Part shown: positions 5,611 through 21,716 of the stretch, piece after piece
Layout: each line of letters opens with the position of its first letter
Numbering within the stretch: position 1 is the first letter of the stretch
Assembly: GCA_011944185.1 (NCBI GenBank)
Contig: GCA_011944185.1_3921.2
Direction: 5' to 3' (one strand)
DNA: 27,455 bases
Source: a phage
The notes under the pieces: generated by a model
Told to the model about the DNA's origin: nothing
The model's database searches: none
What the model saw: the letters and a program-made list of their open reading frames with translations, nothing else
Program-made: the position numbers and the translations under genes

Positions 5611-6651
5611 ATGGAGAAGTACACATTAACAAAACTTCCAGATTCAGTTACACATGTCTTTATTGACTCTGACAGCATTGCCTATAAAGGTGCTTGTGTA
5701 GTTGAGAAAGCAAAGTATAAATACGTTAATAAACTCACAGCAGAAGAATCTGAACCATTTGATAATGCGAAAGATGCTGCAAGATGGTTAGCAGACCAGA
5801 GAATCCTTGTGGAAGAGCTTGGCCTGACATTTGATGAAGATGAATGGGAAAGACAAACTTGGAAAGAAGCTAAGAGTGAAAAAGAAGCTATCATGGCTAC
5901 TCAACAGGTGCTTCAGGAATGGCTTAAGGTTGTTGGTAAAGAAAGAACTTGGGTAGGTTATTTAACAGAGAAGGGTGTGCATAAACATAAAGACATTAAA
6001 GGTCTTGAGCACCAATATCAAGGTAACCGTAAAGATGCCGTCACACCAACACACTTAGTCGCTTGTCGTGAATACCTTTTATCCAGACCAGAGTTCAAGC
6101 TCTTAAAGGGAGGCTTCGAAGCCGATTCAATCGTAATTGCTAAAGCTGAAAAGATGGGTAAGAAGGCTGCTCTTATGAGTATTGACAAAGACCTTCGACA
6201 AGCTGAAGGAACTTATTGTATTGACATGACTTATGAAAAATCACCACTAATCTTTATTGCTGATAATAATGTTGGTGATATCTGGGATTGTCCTATCAAA
6301 TCAAAACCAAAAGCTGCAAAAACAGTTGGTGTAGGTTTTAAATTCTTGTGCTATCAGGCTGTTGCTGGAGATAATGCAGATAACTACTTTGGCCTTAAAG
6401 GTGCTGGTAAAGTAGCTGTGATGAATGCTTTAGATGGTAAAGAGACCTACAAAGAGTGTCTTGATGCTATCTATGAACTCTATGCTAAAAAAGACTCTTA
6501 CACCTATGTATCATGGGATGGACAGATTGTTACAAAGACACCGTTAGAGCTAATGGAACAGCATTTCTTCCTAGCTTATCAAGAAAGAAATCCAAAAGAT
6601 AATTTCTCTTTTAAGAAATATAATTGGGAGCCGTGTATGAATGAAGATTAA
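5611..6651 (+). CDS. 5'-3' exonuclease / flap endonuclease (FEN family, T5 D15-like)
   Basis: N-terminal VFIDSDSIAYKG resembles the FEN PIN-domain start; FEADSIVIAKA resembles the EADD acidic motif; GDNADNYFGLKGAGKVAV fits the H3TH motif GDxxDNxxGxxGxGxK. RBS GGAGAG before the ATG. Confidence 0.65.
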   Translation: MEKYTLTKLPDSVTHVFIDSDSIAYKGACVVEKAKYKYVNKLTAEESEPFDNAKDAARWLADQRILVEELGLTFDEDEWERQTWKEAKSEKEAIMATQQVLQEWLKVVGKERTWVGYLTEKGVHKHKDIKGLEHQYQGNRKDAVTPTHLVACREYLLSRPEFKLLKGGFEADSIVIAKAEKMGKKAALMSIDKDLRQAEGTYCIDMTYEKSPLIFIADNNVGDIWDCPIKSKPKAAKTVGVGFKFLCYQAVAGDNADNYFGLKGAGKVAVMNALDGKETYKECLDAIYELYAKKDSYTYVSWDGQIVTKTPLELMEQHFFLAYQERNPKDNFSFKKYNWEPCMNED

Positions 6652-7138
6652 AGGATTTGGCAATTGTCCTACCTATGGACATTGGGTATCTTTATGTGGG
6701 GAAGTTGACCCCACTAAACATTTTGGTTTTGTCTATTTAGTACACTGTAAGAAGACCGGACAATATTATATCGGAAAGAAACAGCTTAACAGTGTGACCA
6801 AAAGAAAAGTTGCTGGGAAGACTCGGAAGAAGGTAGTCACTAAGGAAAGTGATTGGATGACTTATGAGACTTCTTCTGAGTATATTAAAAAAGATATTGA
6901 GAGCTTTGGAAAAGAATTTTTTGACTTTTACATTATTCAAACCTACTACACAAAAGGTGGTCTAGTTTATGGTGAAGCAAATCTCCAACATAAATTCGAT
7001 GTAATGACAAAAAGGATTGACTCTAAGCTCAGACTCTTCTACAATGCCAATATTGCAGCAATTAAGTTTATCACTAAAGAAACTTATGAAGATGCTGAAA
7101 AAAGAATCCACAAGGTAATGAAAGCAAATTGTGCTTGA
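6641..7138 (+). CDS. putative GIY-YIG endonuclease-like protein
   Basis: GFVYLVHCKKTGQYYIGKK near the N-terminus fits the GIY-(10-11 aa)-YIG spacing of GIY-YIG nucleases (compare I-TevI GIYQIKNTLNNKVYVGSA). Start overlaps the exonuclease stop. Downstream catalytic Arg/Glu not confidently aligned. Confidence 0.4.
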   Translation: MKIKGFGNCPTYGHWVSLCGEVDPTKHFGFVYLVHCKKTGQYYIGKKQLNSVTKRKVAGKTRKKVVTKESDWMTYETSSEYIKKDIESFGKEFFDFYIIQTYYTKGGLVYGEANLQHKFDVMTKRIDSKLRLFYNANIAAIKFITKETYEDAEKRIHKVMKANCA

Positions 7139-12924: not shown

Positions 12925-15069
12925 ATGAACAAAGTACAGATTATTAAAAAGAATGGCTCACTTGAAGAACCTGATATCAAAAAAGTTTTAGCGGCAGTAA
13001 CAAAGTCAGCTAACAGGGTTGGATATAAAGAACTGCCACCAGATGTTACCCAAGCTCTTGAGTCAGCATTCATGAGGATTTTGGTAAAGTCCACTAAGCA
13101 GAATAATTTGCTTATCTCGGTAAATGATATTCACAGTATTGTTGAAGGTGCTTTGGCAGAGGTCAATCACGAGATTTATGAGTCTTACTCAACATACAGA
13201 AATTACCGTAAAGAGGTTGCTCAAAATTGGGACGAACTCTACCAGAAGACTAAAGATACACTCTTCTTAGGTGACCGTGAAAATGCTAACTTTGACAGCA
13301 GTTTAATTTCTACGAAAGGTTCAATTATCCGTGGTTACCTGACTAAAGAAATCTTTAAACAGTATCATCTAACACCAGAGGAACTTGAAGCCATTGAGAA
13401 AGGCTTTATCTATATCCACGATTTGAGAGACCTGATTTTTGGTGGTATTAACTGTTGCCTGTTTGACATTGGTAAAGTACTAAAAGGTGGCTTTGAAATG
13501 TCCGGCATTGAGTACTGTGAACCTAAATCTGTACTGTCAGCGTTGCAGGTTATTGGTGACGTAGTACTTTCAGCAACTGCACAGCAATTTGGTGGTTTTA
13601 CTTTAGCAGAGATTGATAAGGTACTTGTACCGTATGCTAAGAAGTCTCTACGCTATCATGCTGAGAAAGCATCATCTTATGGTATTCCTAAAGAGCATTA
13701 CCACAATTATGTAATGGAGCAGTTACAAATTGAACTGACTCAAGGTTTTCAGTCACTTGAGATGAAACTAAATACCGTACCTTGTAGCCGTGGTGATTTT
13801 GCATTCACAACTTTAACATTTGGTTTACTTGACTCAGATATGTCTAATGAGGATAATCGACTACAATACATGATTGCAAGTACTCTCCTAGATGTTCGTA
13901 TGAATGGACAAGGCAAGAGTAAAAAGCCTGTTGTATTCCCTAAACTGGTTTATATTTATGACCAGAAGAGACATGATGAAAATATCTGTCAAGGTCACCT
14001 GTACAGTAAAGCTATTGAGTGTTGCTCTAAAGCAATGTACCCAGATTTCTTAAGTGTGTCTGGTCATGGTGCTGTAGCAGAGGCTTTTGAGCGTTCTGGT
14101 AAGGTAATTTCACCGATGGGTTGCAGAGCCTTTTTATCTCCATATCTTAATGAGGGTGGAGAAGAGTTCTACGTTGGTCGTGCTAACATTGGTGCTGTAT
14201 CTTTGAACTTACCAATGATTTACCAGTATTCTAAAGAGAATGGTTTAGATTTCTGGAAAGAGCTTGATAAGTACCTAGAGATGATTCGCAACTTCCACAA
14301 GAAACGCTACGAAATGATTGCTAATATGCCAGCAAGTTCTAACCCTCTTGCGTTCACACAAGGTGGTCTGTACAAAGGAACTAAGAAACCTACTGACAAG
14401 GTTGGTTGGGATATTGTGAAGTCCTTCACAGCTTCTTTTGGTGTTACTGCGCTTGATGAGTTGTCTGTTCTTGCTGAAGGTAAACGACTTCATGAAGTTG
14501 GAAGCTATAGTTTTGCATACGATGTTCTGGCATACATCAACATGAAAACTGAAGAGTTTAAAAATGAAGATGGCTTCTTATATGCCGTCTATGGTACTCC
14601 AGCAGAATCACTTTGTGGAACTCAGCTAAAACAGTTCAGAGATATGTTTGGCGTTATCAAAGGTGTTTCTGATAAGGAATACTTTACAAACAGTTTCCAT
14701 ATGAATGTTGCAGCAGACATCTCACCATTTAAGAAGCAGGACTTAGAAGAGCCATTCTTCCATATCTGTAGAGGTGGGAGAATCCAGTATGTCAGGGTAG
14801 CTAACCCAGAAAACTTAACAGCACTTAAAAGCTGTATTACAAGAGGGATGTTGAAAGGTTTCTATCAGGGGCTTAACTTTGACTTAGCAATCTGTGAACA
14901 TTGTGGTAACAGACCAAAGGCTGATGTTGAAGAATGTGAAGTTTGTCACTCACATGATATCTCTGTGATTAACAGGGTGTGTGGGTATCTTGGATGGACT
15001 AAGATTAAAGGTGAATCCCGAATGAACGATGCAAAAATCGCTGAGATTCGTGACAGAGTTTCTATGTAA
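12925..15069 (+). CDS. nrdD: anaerobic ribonucleoside-triphosphate reductase (class III)
   Basis: N-terminal ATP-cone-like segment (IIKKNGSLEEPDIKKV); C-terminal Cys4 zinc ribbon (CEHCGN...CEVCHSHD) followed by the glycyl-radical motif RVCGYLG; 714 aa. Confidence 0.9.
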   Translation: MNKVQIIKKNGSLEEPDIKKVLAAVTKSANRVGYKELPPDVTQALESAFMRILVKSTKQNNLLISVNDIHSIVEGALAEVNHEIYESYSTYRNYRKEVAQNWDELYQKTKDTLFLGDRENANFDSSLISTKGSIIRGYLTKEIFKQYHLTPEELEAIEKGFIYIHDLRDLIFGGINCCLFDIGKVLKGGFEMSGIEYCEPKSVLSALQVIGDVVLSATAQQFGGFTLAEIDKVLVPYAKKSLRYHAEKASSYGIPKEHYHNYVMEQLQIELTQGFQSLEMKLNTVPCSRGDFAFTTLTFGLLDSDMSNEDNRLQYMIASTLLDVRMNGQGKSKKPVVFPKLVYIYDQKRHDENICQGHLYSKAIECCSKAMYPDFLSVSGHGAVAEAFERSGKVISPMGCRAFLSPYLNEGGEEFYVGRANIGAVSLNLPMIYQYSKENGLDFWKELDKYLEMIRNFHKKRYEMIANMPASSNPLAFTQGGLYKGTKKPTDKVGWDIVKSFTASFGVTALDELSVLAEGKRLHEVGSYSFAYDVLAYINMKTEEFKNEDGFLYAVYGTPAESLCGTQLKQFRDMFGVIKGVSDKEYFTNSFHMNVAADISPFKKQDLEEPFFHICRGGRIQYVRVANPENLTALKSCITRGMLKGFYQGLNFDLAICEHCGNRPKADVEECEVCHSHDISVINRVCGYLGWTKIKGESRMNDAKIAEIRDRVSM

Positions 15070-16988: not shown

Positions 16989-17300
16989 ATGAGCAAAATC
17001 TATAACACTCGTAAATTACAGATTGCAATCCTGTGCCAGTTTATGGCTGATAAGCACAACTCACACTATTGTGGTACAGGTTTCCTTATGCAAGGTCGTG
17101 GCTACATTAGCTTCAAAGAAGCTGTGAAGATGTACAATGAGCACCCTGAAGATGACAAAGAGTTGAAACAACTGAAGCTTACTTATGACAAGAAGCGTAA
17201 GAAAATTGTATGCTTGAACAACCTTATCAAGCAAACTGAAAACGTTTATGATGCAATTGGTGAAGAGGGTTTCTTAAAAGTCTTGAAAATAGCTCAGTAA
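16989..17300 (+). CDS. hypothetical protein
   Basis: 103-aa ORF followed by a perfect terminator. No motif recognised. Confidence 0.45.
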   Translation: MSKIYNTRKLQIAILCQFMADKHNSHYCGTGFLMQGRGYISFKEAVKMYNEHPEDDKELKQLKLTYDKKRKKIVCLNNLIKQTENVYDAIGEEGFLKVLKIAQ

Positions 17301-17312
17301 ATGTATATGATT

Positions 17313-17341
17313 AGGGAACTGTAAAGGTTCCCTTTTTATTT
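17313..17341 (+). terminator. Rho-independent terminator
   Basis: Perfect AGGGAAC / GTTCCCT stem with 7-nt loop, followed by TTTTTATTTT. Confidence 0.65.
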
Positions 17342-17351
17342 TGGAGATAAT

Positions 17352-17867
17352 ATGTATCTGTCAAATCTGAAACGTTCTGCTGCAATGTCAGTGTTAAGAC
17401 TCAGTTTTGAGGAACGTCAAGAGTTCATTGACTCCCACCAATACGACCCTTCCAACTCCAATCACATGATTCTCTGGAATCGTGAGAGTACTCGTGAAAG
17501 AGCATTATTTCGATATTACCCACACTACACCATAGACAACCTGTATGAATGTTTTGTTGTGAAGAACACCATTACAGTACTCAATAAACTTTGCAGATAC
17601 ACAGGCAGTCAATCCTTCACATTAGGCCACCACAATCCTGTTACAAAAGGTGGTGAACATCACTGTGCAAACTGGTTTATTCAGACTAAAGCTGATAACC
17701 AGAAGCAAGGAGATAGTCTTTTAAGTACCCCTAAGATGACCTATGAAGAGCAAGAGAGATATATCAAAAATAATATGCCAGATGTGCTTGACAACAACTA
17801 TACAGATTTGGCAATATCTCTCCTGTTGAAGTTCGAGATAGTTTATAGGGCAACTTACAATGGCTAA
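17352..17867 (+). CDS. putative HNH (His-Me finger) endonuclease
   Basis: LCRYTGSQSFTLGHHNPVTKGGEHHCANWFIQTKADNQKQGD fits the HNH pattern C..C...HH.P...GG...N...N.K; GGAG RBS. Confidence 0.5.
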   Translation: MYLSNLKRSAAMSVLRLSFEERQEFIDSHQYDPSNSNHMILWNRESTRERALFRYYPHYTIDNLYECFVVKNTITVLNKLCRYTGSQSFTLGHHNPVTKGGEHHCANWFIQTKADNQKQGDSLLSTPKMTYEEQERYIKNNMPDVLDNNYTDLAISLLLKFEIVYRATYNG

Positions 17868-18138
17868 AGAAAAGTGGGAGATTTTACCATTAGTCAGTGA
17901 AGGTGGTAATGGTTGTGAAATGTACATGATACGTGGTCATGTTCCAGAGCCAATTGCACTTGAGATGGTAAACAACTTTACAGATGGTTCTTACAAAGAC
18001 TTAGGCGAACCAACTGTCAAGCAACAATGGGTTAAACCTGTACCAGACAGCACAGGTAACTGTAGTGTACTTTATCACGTTGTAGACCCTGCAAAATGCA
18101 AATCTGCAATGGCAGTAACAAACATAACTTTTGATTGA
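17860..18138 (+). CDS. hypothetical protein
   Basis: 92-aa ORF overlapping the upstream stop. No motif recognised. Confidence 0.45.
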   Translation: MAKEKWEILPLVSEGGNGCEMYMIRGHVPEPIALEMVNNFTDGSYKDLGEPTVKQQWVKPVPDSTGNCSVLYHVVDPAKCKSAMAVTNITFD

Positions 18139-18149
18139 GAGAGAAAACT

Positions 18150-19031
18150 ATGAAAACATCTATACGTGTTACAGTTCATTCACCAACTAAAGGAACTCAT
18201 GAAGAAGAGTTTAACATCATCCAATTTCCTTCTGGTGAGATTGGTGGACACTTTTCGCCAGAGTTTGTTGATTTCACTGCTTATGCAGCATCATCCATCA
18301 ACAATGTGATTATGATTGTAAAAGGTTATGATAAGGACACATTGTTTGCTGTGGCACTTGCTAAAGAAGCAATTGATGATTTAATTCCTCACGATTATGC
18401 TTTAAAGACTGTCATCTTTTACTACTTACCAAATGCACGATATGACCGTCACATGTTTAAAGGCGACGCAGCAGCTTTAAAGGTTTTTGCTAAACAGATT
18501 AATGCAATGGGGTTTGGCGCAGTCTGTGCAGTTGACCCTCACAGCTATGTACCAGATAACCTGTTTAACTGCTTCCAGAGTATTCCTCAAAAGGAAATTG
18601 CAGTCCACTATGCAAATGACCCACTGATTGATTACTTAGTAGCCCCAGATGCAGGTGCTGCTAAGAAGATTGCAGAGACTGCTAAAGAGGTGGATAAACC
18701 ATACATCACAATGTCTAAGGTGCGTAACCTTAAGACTGGTGAAATTACTGGTATGCGAATCCTTGATGATGTTGATTTGACAGATAAAACCGTTATGATT
18801 CTGGATGATATCTGTGATGGTGGTCGAACCTTCATAGAAGCAGCGAAACATCTTCGTGAAGCAGGTGCAAAACGTGTGGAACTTTATGTAACACATGGTA
18901 TCTTCTCTAAAGATGTTGAAAACCTTCTTGACAATGGTATCGACCATATTTACACTACAAACTCTTTAGGCGAAGCTAAAGACCGTGGCTTAACACATTA
19001 TGGTCAAGTTACTGTAGCGAACCTTGATTAG
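18150..19031 (+). CDS. ribose-phosphate pyrophosphokinase (Prs)-family protein; PRPP synthetase or ADPR-pyrophosphate synthetase-like
   Basis: C-terminal half aligns with E. coli Prs as I recall it: VAPDAGAAKKIAE...VMILDDICDGGRTFIEAAKHLREAGAKRVELYVTHGIFS vs VSPDIGGVVRARA...[38 protein letters not shown]; DPHS resembles the Prs DLHA motif. The PRTase loop reads DGGRT where I recall DTGGT in Prs. The ORF track starts at a TTG at 18135; I prefer the ATG at 18150 after GAGAGAG. Confidence 0.75.
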   Translation: MKTSIRVTVHSPTKGTHEEEFNIIQFPSGEIGGHFSPEFVDFTAYAASSINNVIMIVKGYDKDTLFAVALAKEAIDDLIPHDYALKTVIFYYLPNARYDRHMFKGDAAALKVFAKQINAMGFGAVCAVDPHSYVPDNLFNCFQSIPQKEIAVHYANDPLIDYLVAPDAGAAKKIAETAKEVDKPYITMSKVRNLKTGEITGMRILDDVDLTDKTVMILDDICDGGRTFIEAAKHLREAGAKRVELYVTHGIFSKDVENLLDNGIDHIYTTNSLGEAKDRGLTHYGQVTVANLD

Positions 19032-19039
19032 GTAACAGT

Positions 19040-19531
19040 ATGAATAAGGGTTATTTTGAAAAATACCTAATATATGAACCAGATACAGGTTTATTAATTT
19101 GGAGAGTAACCCTTTGCAGTACCGCTATTGCTGGTAATGTGGCTGGCACAAAGTCTAAGAAGGGTTATATCCAAGTCCAGATAAATAAGAAGAGGTACTA
19201 TGCACATAATATTGCATGGATTATGTCTGGAGGTGAGATACCAAGTGGATATGAGATAGACCACATAGACCTTGATAAAGCTAATAATAAGTTGGAGAAT
19301 TTAAGACTTAGCACAAAGTCACAAAATCAGAGGAATAGGGGTATACACAAGAATAATAAAACTGGTGTGAAGGGTGTAAGTTTTTGTAAACAAACAGGTC
19401 TTTACAAAGCAAGAGTCATGCTTTACCATAAAGAATACTTTTGTGGAAGATTTAAAACGGTAGAAGAAGCAAAAGAAGCTGTAATTAAAAAGCGAATAGA
19501 ACTTCATGGTGAGTTTGCAAGACATAACTAA
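19040..19531 (+). CDS. free-standing HNH homing endonuclease with AP2-type DNA-binding domain
   Basis: YAHNIAWIMSGGEIPSGYEIDHIDLDKANNKLENLRL matches the HNH_3 pattern; C-terminal KTGVKGVSFCKQTGLYKARV...FKTVEEAKEA resembles an AP2 domain. Inserted between two functionally linked genes (Prs-like and Nampt-like). Confidence 0.75.
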   Translation: MNKGYFEKYLIYEPDTGLLIWRVTLCSTAIAGNVAGTKSKKGYIQVQINKKRYYAHNIAWIMSGGEIPSGYEIDHIDLDKANNKLENLRLSTKSQNQRNRGIHKNNKTGVKGVSFCKQTGLYKARVMLYHKEYFCGRFKTVEEAKEAVIKKRIELHGEFARHN

Positions 19532-19545
19532 GAGAGAGATAAAAT

Positions 19546-21327
19546 ATGAGTAAGTCACTTTACGCAGTACCAGCAGGTCTTAATGCAGATGCTTACAAGG
19601 CATCACATATATATCAGTATCCAGATGCTACGCAATATCTTATGTTAAACCTGACACCACGTAGTGATAAATGGTTTAACAGCCCTTTAGCAATTGACGG
19701 TGTAGTGGCTTTTGGTATTCAACGTTTTGTTAAAGATTACTTGATAGACCACTGGAACGCCACCTTCTTTGAACGTGACAAAAAAGAAGCAATTGACGAA
19801 ATCTTAGAAGTCATGAACGGTGTTCTGGGTAAAGATGCTATCGGTAGAGAACATTGGGAAGCACTTCACGACTTAGGCTATCTACCAGTTGAAGTATACG
19901 CTGTAGAAGAAGGCACAGTTGTTCCTATGCGTGTACCAATGATTGTCTTCCAGAACACTGTTTCAGGTTTCCATTGGGTAGCTGGGTATCTGGAAGATGC
20001 TTTCTCTGCTGAGATTTGGAAGGCTTGTACCATTGCAACTATTGCATTGCACTACAAACGTATCTGTAAGAAGTGGTCTGACCTTACTTGTGACAACGAC
20101 TTGCATTTGCCTTATCAGTGCCATGACTTTGCTATGCGTGGTATGTCCGGCTTTACTGATGACGCATTTAACGCTGTAGGCCACTTAACCAGCTTTAAAG
20201 GAACTGATAGCTTCCCTGCTGTATATACAGCTAAACGCATCTATGGACAGTCCTACCCAATCTCTGATATTGGTAGCTCTGTACCAGCCACTGAACACTC
20301 TGTGATGTGTGCAAACATTGCTTGGGAAGGTGGTAATGAGTTGGTTGAAGAAGAAAGACGCTTTAAAGGTGAGTTGCAAACCTTCCGTCGCTTCTTAACA
20401 GAAACTTATCCAACTGGTATTGCAAGTGTTGTTTCAGACACTTATAACTTCTGGAGAACTGTGTCAGAAATCTTACCAGCACTCCGTAAAGAAATTATGG
20501 AACGTGATGGCAAACTGGTAATTCGTCCTGACTCTGGAGACCCTGTACACATTGTCACAGGTTATAAAGCAATCCACTTAGAGTGTGCTAAAAAGGCTTA
20601 TTATGAGCACCTAAGCAATCTGGAAGCCAGTGACACAATGCTGAATGCTGTTCTGAACATGAAGCTTGAAAACATCAGCTATGGTATTGCTGGATGGCTA
20701 CTGTCAGAAGGCTACGAAATGGTTGTTGACAGAGAAGACTTTGAAGTTGCTGATACAGTGATGTTGAAGAACGCTTATATGGTTGGTTCTGCAAACGTTG
20801 TAACACGCCCTGTAGCAGAGATTGATGGAGCTATTAAGACCTTGTATAACATCTTTGGAGGAACTATTAACTCTAAAGGTTTTAAGGTACTGGATGAGCA
20901 CATTGGCCTTATCTATGGCGACTCTATCACGTTGGAACGTGCAAACGAAATCCTGAAGCGTCTGTATGAAATGGGGTTTGCAAGCTCTAACGTGGTGTTT
21001 GGTGTAGGCTCTTACACTTACCAGTACATGACTCGTGACACCTTTGCATTTGCTGTCAAAGCAACTCTTGCAAGCATTGGTGGCAAAGAGATTATGCTTG
21101 CAAAAGACCCTAAAACAGATAGTGGTGTTAAGAAATCTGCCTTTGGTGGTGTAGCACCTATGTGGGATGGTGAGAATTTGAAAGCTGTAGATGGCTATGG
21201 ATTCCAGAGCTTTGCAGATGCACTTGAACATCCAGCTTGTGCTTTACGTTTAGTCTTTAGCGACTCTGAGCAGTACGGTTACACAACTCTTGGTGATATT
21301 CGAAATAATATTGACAATCAGCTTTAA
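19546..21327 (+). CDS. nicotinamide phosphoribosyltransferase (Nampt/NadV)-family protein; possibly nicotinamide ADPR-transferase-like
   Basis: N-terminal LNADAYKASHIYQYPD fits the (D)xYKxxH signature of the Nampt/NAPRTase family; 593 aa; AGAGAGAG RBS; followed by a terminator. Catalytic residues not individually verified. Confidence 0.7.
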   Translation: MSKSLYAVPAGLNADAYKASHIYQYPDATQYLMLNLTPRSDKWFNSPLAIDGVVAFGIQRFVKDYLIDHWNATFFERDKKEAIDEILEVMNGVLGKDAIGREHWEALHDLGYLPVEVYAVEEGTVVPMRVPMIVFQNTVSGFHWVAGYLEDAFSAEIWKACTIATIALHYKRICKKWSDLTCDNDLHLPYQCHDFAMRGMSGFTDDAFNAVGHLTSFKGTDSFPAVYTAKRIYGQSYPISDIGSSVPATEHSVMCANIAWEGGNELVEEERRFKGELQTFRRFLTETYPTGIASVVSDTYNFWRTVSEILPALRKEIMERDGKLVIRPDSGDPVHIVTGYKAIHLECAKKAYYEHLSNLEASDTMLNAVLNMKLENISYGIAGWLLSEGYEMVVDREDFEVADTVMLKNAYMVGSANVVTRPVAEIDGAIKTLYNIFGGTINSKGFKVLDEHIGLIYGDSITLERANEILKRLYEMGFASSNVVFGVGSYTYQYMTRDTFAFAVKATLASIGGKEIMLAKDPKTDSGVKKSAFGGVAPMWDGENLKAVDGYGFQSFADALEHPACALRLVFSDSEQYGYTTLGDIRNNIDNQL

Positions 21328-21341
21328 AAGTATATGATAAG

Positions 21342-21364
21342 AGGCTCCTACGGGAGCCTTTTTA
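21342..21364 (+). terminator. Rho-independent terminator (TACG loop)
   Basis: Perfect AGGCTCC-TACG-GGAGCCT hairpin followed by TTTT. Confidence 0.65.
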
Positions 21365-21380
21365 ATTTCTGGAGAAGATT

Positions 21381-21716
21381 ATGAAAATCAAAGAGATGAA
21401 CATCAACATTGTCTTAGAAGAACGTTGGGAGAATATTAAGAAACCTGAAGATGGTAAAAAGTTCCTTAACAAAATTTTAGTAGCAGCTAAAGAAGAACTG
21501 ACTGGCAAGATTGCAGCAGCAGTCACAATAAAAGTTTGTGTAAAAGGTCTTCCAGACAACCACCAATTTGCGCTTGACGAGTTTAAAAAAAGCTTCTACA
21601 ATCCAAACAAACAGATGCTTGAAAGTAACTTTGCAGTATCTACAAGTATCGTCCATGACAGAAGCTTTATCCTTTACAAAAATATGAGAGGTGAGTCATG
21701 CAAGCATATTGGATAG
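21381..21716 (+). CDS. hypothetical protein
   Basis: 111-aa ORF; GGAGAAG RBS. No motif recognised. Confidence 0.5.
   Translation: MKIKEMNINIVLEERWENIKKPEDGKKFLNKILVAAKEELTGKIAAAVTIKVCVKGLPDNHQFALDEFKKSFYNPNKQMLESNFAVSTSIVHDRSFILYKNMRGESCKHIG

Follow-up and report, generated by a model that had tools for sequence, protein, structure and literature searches.

A probable NARP1 counter-defence operon with an HNH endonuclease gene between its two enzyme genes in a Felixounavirus genome fragment

NARP1 and the adps-namat locus

In NAD+ (nicotinamide adenine dinucleotide) reconstitution pathway 1, NARP1, a virus restores the metabolite that the immune response of its host has destroyed, by means of two reactions that were unknown before 2024 (Osterman et al., bioRxiv 10.1101/2024.02.11.579819). 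The operon in which the pathway was discovered, encoding the enzymes Adps and Namat, comprises genes 79-80 of Escherichia phage JohannRWettstein (Bas63, MZ501086). Here we describe a phage DNA of 27,455 nucleotides (contig GCA_011944185.1_3921.2 of NCBI GenBank assembly GCA_011944185.1), hereafter the window, which carries a Prs-family gene (adps, 18150-19031, plus strand, start codon ATG, 293 amino acids) and a Nampt-family gene (namat, 19546-21327, plus strand, 593 amino acids) with an HNH endonuclease gene (19040-19531, plus strand, 163 amino acids) between them. The two enzyme genes are the syntenic orthologues of Bas63 genes 79-80, and because of this we consider the region to be, very probably, a NARP1 counter-defence operon of Felixounavirus, whose allele pair would have the same activities. 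The window thus adds no new system, since NARP1 has already been described, and in the genus of its discovery.

Deletion of the operon from Bas63 resulted in ~20-fold fewer plaques on cells carrying SIR2-HerA, and NAD+ recovered with wild-type Bas63 only. The intermediate ADP-ribose pyrophosphate (ADPR-PP, m/z 720.010) was seen only when Bas63 carrying the operon infected cells that had the defence system. The NARP1 systems of FADO and SPbetaL1 also rescue phage, from DSR2, Thoeris and other systems. Purified SPbetaL1 Adps forms ADPR-PP from ADP-ribose and ATP, and SPbetaL1 Namat forms NAD+ from ADPR-PP and nicotinamide, with a preference for ADPR-PP over phosphoribosyl pyrophosphate (PRPP; all Osterman et al.). 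By analogy, a host NAD+-depleting effector of SIR2, TIR or SEFIR type (SIR2-HerA, DSR1/2, type I Thoeris and others) would cleave NAD+ to ADP-ribose and nicotinamide during infection. The Adps of the window would then transfer pyrophosphate from ATP to the free ribose of ADP-ribose, and Namat would exchange the pyrophosphate of the resulting ADPR-PP for nicotinamide. This would yield NAD+ directly, with no need for either nicotinamide mononucleotide (NMN) as an intermediate or an Nmnat. Such a pathway would be limited by its substrate and would therefore stay inactive until a defence system is triggered.

A megablast search with positions 18000-21500 against 50,697 phage records matched 258 of them, nearly all from Felix O1-like phages whose hosts are Escherichia, Salmonella, Shigella or Citrobacter. 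The highest nucleotide identities, 96.8% each, were to the Felixounavirus phages LF110P4 and phiWec177. Judged by sequence similarity, the window is a Felixounavirus fragment. Its entire length is collinear with positions 33703-61762 of Bas63 at 84-96% nucleotide identity, and the shared neighbours include a deoxynucleotide monophosphate (dNMP) kinase, a primase-helicase, NrdA/B, NrdD/G, the homologues of Bas63 genes 77-80, and rIIA/B. The adps-namat arrangement is present in ~230-260 Ounavirinae records, and given this recurrence the pairing is not a matter of chance. As in Bas63, the pair lies between nrdG and rIIA in a phage of the same genus, and it encodes proteins of the same lengths, 293 and 593 amino acids. 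Both alignments to Bas63 are gapless: Adps is identical to Bas63_0079 at 230 of 293 positions (78%) and Namat to Bas63_0080 at 573 of 593 (97%). Nearly identical proteins already stand in the tables of the discoverers. The phiWec177 protein, which shares 290 of 293 residues (99%) with the Adps of the window, is entered in their Table S1 as a Namat-associated Adps, and Table S2 labels the Nampt homologues of Bas63, phiWec177 and Felix O1 "Adps-associated" (Osterman et al.).

An earlier note on this DNA, made from its letters alone, had described two co-oriented genes, Prs-like and Nampt-like, lying ~0.5 kb apart, split by a homing endonuclease gene and closed by a terminator. It had regarded an ADPR-PP synthetase and a nicotinamide ADPR-transferase as at least as fitting as a simple supply of PRPP. 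The listing of open reading frames (ORFs) bears out the layout, with namat starting 515 nt past the adps stop and one gene in between, where NARP1 calls for a Namat homologue no more than ten genes from adps, and the orthology to Bas63 genes 79-80 supports the ADPR-PP reading over plain PRPP supply. The terminator and the endonuclease, dealt with below, also proved correct.

Several points weigh against assigning the locus to NARP1. The in vitro biochemistry comes from the SPbetaL1 proteins, which are just ~30% (Adps) and ~38% (Namat) identical to those of the window, and Bas63 Adps "did not purify well" (Osterman et al.). The tested Bas63 operon is without an HNH gene between the enzymes, and the N-terminal third of the Adps of the window is deeply diverged from the tested Bas63 allele. 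When ADPR-PP is absent, Namat makes NMN from PRPP in vitro (Osterman et al.). Finally, the window covers 27 kb of the genome, and it is possible that an Nmnat is encoded elsewhere in the phage.

The last two points would fit a classical salvage route, in which PRPP from the Prs-like enzyme would be turned into NMN by the Nampt-like enzyme, and NAD+ would be produced through host NadR/PncC routes or an unseen phage Nmnat, either as a NARP2-like function or as a metabolic boost. The names given by Pfam, PHROGs, NCBIfam and GenBank, all of them Prs and Nampt/NAPRTase, also agree with such a route. We nevertheless consider it very unlikely. Bas63 overcomes SIR2-HerA even in a pncC nadR double-deletion host, where the effect of the operon persists. 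SPbetaL1 Adps, which makes ADPR-PP from ADP-ribose, gave no Prs-type product in a control whose substrate was ribose-5-phosphate according to the legend of Fig. 2D and PRPP according to the text, and Namat offered both of its substrates made NAD+ only (Osterman et al.). The earlier note had seen no Nmnat in the window, and this held in every scan that we made. Pfam scans of every non-overlapping window ORF with 60 or more amino acids, 35 in all, and of one ORF of 58 amino acids returned no CTP_transf_like match. GxFxPxHxGH and ISSTxxR, two signatures of Nmnat, were both absent when all six frames of the window and of the complete Bas63 genome were scanned, and the Bas63 annotation lists no Nmnat.

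The known Nampt plus Nmnat salvage system, NARP2 or the NadV plus NatV pair of KVP40, whose nadV and natV genes are not adjacent, resembles the locus in having a Nampt-family enzyme, in producing NAD+ and in countering NAD+-depleting defence. It differs in starting from PRPP, with a Nampt of a PRPP-preferring clade that is not associated with Adps, in requiring an Nmnat and in over-producing NAD+, whereas the window, with no Nmnat found, pairs an Adps with a Nampt homologue that has the Namat clamp described below. No phage is known to encode both NARP1 and NARP2 (Osterman et al.), which also speaks against classical salvage.

Adps and Namat compared with Prs and Nampt

As proposed in the earlier note, we compared the two proteins with characterized Prs and Nampt and with phage Adps and Namat, and the window pair fits Adps and Namat. 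The Adps alignment comprised seven Adps (those of the window, Bas63, SPbetaL1 and FADO, and three others from Table S1) and E. coli K-12 Prs. In it, the identity of the window protein was 23-34% to six other Adps and 23% to E. coli Prs. The putative catalytic residue Lys190 (codon 18717-18719, plus strand), which is the equivalent of SPbetaL1 K162 and of B. subtilis Prs K197, lies in a column that is invariant in all seven Adps and E. coli Prs, and the K162A replacement abolished NARP1 activity in SPbetaL1 Adps (Osterman et al.). With E. coli Prs (b1207) the protein of the window also shares the fold family and the FxxGE, RxDR, His and KxR catalytic-loop elements.

The differences from Prs concern two motifs. 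All aligned Adps have PHS where Prs has LHA. In addition, window residues 218-227 (LDDICDGGRT) align with DDMIDTGGT of E. coli K-12 Prs, so that the loop DGGRT (residues 223-227, 18816-18830, plus strand) corresponds to the ribose-5-phosphate loop DTGGT. The earlier note had contrasted DGGRT with DTGGT of E. coli and had taken it as a hint of altered specificity. The difference itself was verified in E. coli K-12 Prs, but DGGRT is not a general mark of Adps. No aligned Adps keeps the Thr found at position 2 of DTGGT, which gives way to G, F or Y, and the Arg of the window loop varies within the family, with SFGGT in SPbetaL1, SYGGT in FADO and DGGAT in a Pseudomonas phage. We therefore rejected DGGRT as a family marker and regard it as a feature of the clade.

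Pfam assigned Pribosyltran (1.2e-11) and Pribosyl_synth (4.7e-10) to Adps, and PHROGs assigned phrog_619, "ribose-phosphate pyrophosphokinase" (3e-97). Among NCBIfam models, the protein passes the broad TIGR01251 subfamily model alone (122.6 vs a cut-off of 113). It fails all Prs equivalogs, with a best score of 104 bits against a required 296, where E. coli Prs scores 533 vs 297. Thus, neither the equivalog score nor the DTxGT loop of a canonical Prs is found in the Adps of the window, which further argues against classical salvage. Going by the biochemistry of its homologue, the substrate of this enzyme would be ADP-ribose and not ribose-5-phosphate as for Prs. A literature search found no paper on the structure or the specificity determinants of Adps, and the PDB copy searched contained no Adps structure, the best sequence match being an archaeal Prs (3e-18).

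The divergence of Adps from the Bas63 protein is concentrated at one end. Residues 1-100 (18150-18450) represent a deeply diverged allele relative to both Bas63 and Felix O1, with ~61% nucleotide identity. Against Bas63, 62 of these 100 amino acids are identical and synonymous sites are saturated; in the remainder, 168 of 193 amino acids are identical at 85-93% nucleotide identity. The two types of N-terminal allele assort independently of the presence of the HNH gene, which points to recombination within adps, as far as can be read from the sequences compared. The ratio of nonsynonymous to synonymous substitution rates (dN/dS) against Bas63 is 0.15 for adps and 0.07 for namat, values that indicate purifying selection on both genes.

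For Namat, the crystal structures of the SPbetaL1 enzyme (PDB 9w5w and 9w5x), solved with nicotinamide and with NAD+, define a "selectivity clamp" that separates Namat from Nampt (Lan et al., PMC12774641). The clamp consists of a helix with the motif GS-X-phi-X-phi-X-phi-TRD, where X is aromatic, and of a variable loop that provides a stacking residue. In the window, the predicted selectivity-clamp helix reads GSYTYQYMTRD (residues 488-498, 21007-21039, plus strand) and fits the published consensus. The motif is conserved in all 43 aligned homologues and reads GSFTYQYNTRD in SPbetaL1; at the third phi position the window has Met, where Asn or Val is commonest. The predicted selectivity-clamp loop is SDKWFNSPLAI (residues 40-50, 19663-19695, plus strand), which aligns with R40 of SPbetaL1. 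Published loops have either Arg at position 3, or Lys or Tyr at position 3 with residue 4 stacking, Bas63 being the example for Lys (Lan et al.). The window has the same S40-D41-K42-W43 as Bas63, with K42-W43 at the predicted adenine-stacking position, whereas SPbetaL1 uses Arg40. Possession of this aromatic adenine clamp, which defines Namat, is another point against classical salvage.

The remainder of the enzyme is consistent with the assignment to Namat. The catalytic core residues D15, Y17, F195, R198, D221, H251, R327 and D329 are invariant in the 43 homologues, and their SPbetaL1 counterparts are D13, Y15, F189, R192, D215, the catalytic His, R306 and D308. Among PDB sequences, 9w5w and 9w5x were the top matches (4.5e-128), ahead of 9ke8 (H. 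ducreyi NadV) and human NAMPT. An AlphaFold2 model built with the 43 homologues had a mean predicted local distance difference test score (pLDDT) of 93.6 and a predicted template modelling score (pTM) of 0.91. Foldseek placed this model closest to the same two Namat crystal structures (target TM 0.95), again ahead of H. ducreyi NadV and human NAMPT. Pfam (NAPRTase, 2.9e-35; NAMPT_N, 8.8e-6) and PHROGs (phrog_448, "nicotinamide phosphoribosyl transferase", 1e-201) name the broader family. Overall, the locus shares with SPbetaL1 NARP1 the two-gene logic, the Adps catalytic Lys, the Namat core and the aromatic clamp helix; it differs from it in the Adps loop and the clamp loop, as stated above, and in the length of Namat.

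The Namat of the window is ~100 residues longer than the crystallized enzyme, chiefly through an inserted subdomain of 88 residues (340-427, 20563-20826, plus strand) that is absent from crystallized Namat and Nampt; a further insert of 15 residues is also lacking in SPbetaL1. With high confidence, residues 340-427 were predicted to fold into a compact alpha/beta unit, whether modelled within the whole protein or on their own (on their own: pLDDT 94.7, pTM 0.83). A tblastn search with the insert returned 254 records, all from Ounavirinae, and other long phage Namats have different inserts at the same site. Our searches detected no relative of the insert in sequence or fold, and the text of the structural paper (Lan et al., PMC12774641) makes no mention of it. 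Since Bas63 Namat has the same insert, along with the same clamp residues, the insert does not set the window apart from the known system. It could serve in docking Adps, which does not bind Namat in the SPbetaL1 pair, to channel the labile ADPR-PP, in gating the active-site entrance, or in shielding from a host counter-measure. Host factors of the latter sort may also have selected for the deep divergence among the N-terminal Adps alleles. That the subdomain is a functional add-on to NARP1, making the Felixounavirus enzyme a mechanistic variant of SPbetaL1 Namat, appears doubtful to us.

Two side observations concern the wider Namat family. Chromosomal homologues of ~496 amino acids from Klebsiella, Cronobacter, Kosakonia, Phytobacter and Kluyvera (P0069-P0120) are annotated as nicotinate phosphoribosyltransferase and have the motif GS[YF]TYQYNTRD. 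By its sequence, this motif hints that genomes of Enterobacteriaceae contain NARP1-like enzymes or prophage copies, which would agree with the description of bacterial NARP1 by Lan et al. Furthermore, PHROGs 16547 and 15800 match only one half of Namat, either the N-terminal (1-320) or the C-terminal (267-593), and there are shortened homologues of 409-443 amino acids (P0045, P0057). It is thus possible that namat is split or interrupted in some phages.

The HNH gene and the transcription unit

Where Bas63 has a spacer of 45 bp between adps and namat, the window has a 492-nt HNH gene. Its product matches HNH_3 of Pfam (5.5e-19), with a weak AP2 match (4.8e-4) that lies under the gathering score, and phrog_99, "HNH endonuclease" (1.9e-68). 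By megablast, the gene occurs in 62 records, as compared with 232-258 that have the flanking genes, that is, in about one-quarter of the relatives. Empty sites with the 45-bp spacer are found in Bas63 and in DE17, the latter with a window-type adps allele (98.7%), and Felix O1 carries a copy of the HNH gene that is 90% identical. Among carriers, the HNH gene is more strongly conserved than its flank, at ~99% identity compared with ~93% for adps; for VpaE1 the values are 99.2% vs 93.2%. All four combinations of Adps allele and HNH status are seen: window-type with HNH (the window), window-type without (DE17), Felix-type with HNH (Felix O1) and Felix-type without (Bas63). The existence of all four indicates that the region recombines freely.

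Given the HNH domain, the intergenic position, the presence/absence polymorphism and a conservation above that of the flanks, we conclude that the middle gene is a selfish, mobile, free-standing HNH homing endonuclease with predicted cleavage activity, and not a component of the pathway. In other phages, accessory genes are inserted between or beside adps and namat. The NARP1-AP locus of Vibrio phage Gary (Adps-Adpp-Namat), which counters aRES, has a Macro-domain ADPR-1''-phosphatase between the two genes, and RyDEP-containing NARP1 loci, as in mycobacteriophage DyoEdafos, encode a RyR-domain glycosidase of cyclic ADP-ribose. The window resembles these loci in having a third gene within the NARP1 operon, but theirs extends the pathway whereas that of the window is a selfish endonuclease.

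Precedents of this kind would allow for an extended NARP1, with ADP-ribose supplied to the pathway by an accessory enzyme in the manner of Adpp or RyDEP, encoded either by the middle gene or by one of its neighbours. The two ORFs upstream of adps, of unassigned function and in the same terminator-bounded unit, could be cited in its favour. We regard this as extremely improbable. The HNH_3 assignment of the middle gene is clear and the gene is polymorphic in its presence, and on these grounds of domain content and polymorphism we rejected it as an accessory of either type. Within the ORF set scanned above, there was no Pfam match at E<=0.01 to Nudix, Macro (PF01661, PF14519, PF20016) or RyR (PF02026), and the neighbouring ORFs fall in PHROGs of unassigned function.

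The cassette begins 8 nt downstream of the adps stop codon, and 14 nt separate its end from the start of namat; the window segment equivalent to the HNH-free spacer spans 19032-19545. The HNH-free spacers contain a conserved terminator-like hairpin (GGGGCTT[G/A]AAAGCCCC and a T-run; 15629-15673 of L002 for Bas63 and 3898-3942 of L006 for DE17). This spacer hairpin (GGGGCTTAAAAGCCCC with its T-run) is replaced by the cassette. In the HNH-free relatives, the hairpin could determine how much of one enzyme is made relative to the other. The ribosome-binding region of namat (GAGAGAGATAAAAT, 19532-19545, plus strand) is kept downstream of the cassette, and the context GAGAGAGA-N-ATG precedes namat in the window as well as in Bas63 and DE17, which have no HNH gene there.

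The loss of the native spacer raises the question of whether the operon is impaired here, with Namat expression decoupled or silenced by the insertion and the locus a decaying remnant. In keeping with this, the cassette replaces a conserved hairpin, and the sole experimentally tested Felixounavirus operon, that of Bas63, is without the insertion. There is, in our view, only a slight chance that this is so. Both enzyme ORFs are full length and have the low dN/dS values reported above (0.07 for Namat, 0.15 for Adps), the Shine-Dalgarno region of namat is kept, and no terminator was found in the cassette region. Moreover, the interrupted arrangement persists in the 62 sequenced phages that carry it, Felix O1 included.

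The operon is closed by a predicted intrinsic terminator (21339-21368, plus strand), formed by a hairpin at 21339-21362 and a T-rich tail, TAATTT. The hairpin has a 10-bp stem (AAGAGGCTCC/GGAGCCTTTT) with five G-C pairs and a 4-nt loop. A putative sigma-70-like promoter close to the consensus (21311-21338, TTGACA-16-TATGAT, 11/12) overlaps the final codons of namat and abuts this hairpin. At the other end, a terminator-like hairpin (17313-17333) and a promoter-like site (17283-17311) lie upstream of adps, so that the transcription unit likely extends from ~17350 to 21362 and includes two small ORFs 5' of adps. For adps itself, there is an alternative upstream TTG start at 18135; the ATG at 18150 agrees with the annotated start of the Bas63 orthologue.

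The two small ORFs, at 17352-17867 and 17860-18138, are homologues of bas63_0077 and bas63_0078 and belong to PHROGs 3500 and 4726, of unassigned function. From their position between the hairpin at 17313-17333 and adps, they may be co-transcribed with the NARP1 genes. The 171-amino acid product of the first contains an HNH-motif-like stretch, HH..P...GG....N..N, and has a weak match to an HNH PHROG (3e-4); against PDB sequences, its sole match was protein A, which is spurious and summed over repeats. Downstream, a homologue of bas63_0081 follows namat in Bas63 and DE17 but is absent from the window. Together with the HNH gene in place of the spacer and the diverged N-terminal third of Adps, this absence is what distinguishes the locus from that of Bas63.

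Annotation, expected defence profile and neighbouring genes

The practical value of these results lies in annotation, since NCBIfam and Pfam models cannot tell Adps and Namat from Prs and Nampt. Neither enzyme has a model of its own in NCBIfam release 20. This library gives the Namat of the window and the Nampt of KVP40 one identical name, and curated models are thus unable to separate the two activities. In GenBank records of relatives, adps is called "ribose-phosphate pyrophosphokinase", and some of these records give its gene name as "nadR", while namat is called "nicotinamide/nicotinate phosphoribosyltransferase"; the names Adps and Namat do not occur in these annotations. None of the papers searched names both Felixounavirus and NARP1.

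For phage therapy, Felixounaviruses with the operon are expected to resist NAD+ depletion of SIR2, TIR and SEFIR type. Because no Adpp phosphatase is present, they would not be expected to resist aRES-type defence, and the phage of the window is predicted to stay sensitive to it.

The product of a gene at 1286-2029 is a dNMP kinase (Pfam DNMK, 1.2e-20). The Kongming (KomABC) system depletes NAD+, can be neutralized by NARP1 and is reportedly triggered by a phage dNMP kinase (Lan et al.). With this gene alongside NARP1, the phage may carry both the trigger of Kongming and its antidote, the kinase being a candidate trigger by family membership.

The window shows further mosaicism of homing endonucleases. 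The intron with a homing-endonuclease insert in Bas63 nrdD (MZ501086, 47828-48568) is missing from the nrdD of the window, which is uninterrupted at 12925-15069 (site at ~14122). A SegE-like GIY-YIG endonuclease gene (Pfam, 9e-28) lies at 6641-7138.

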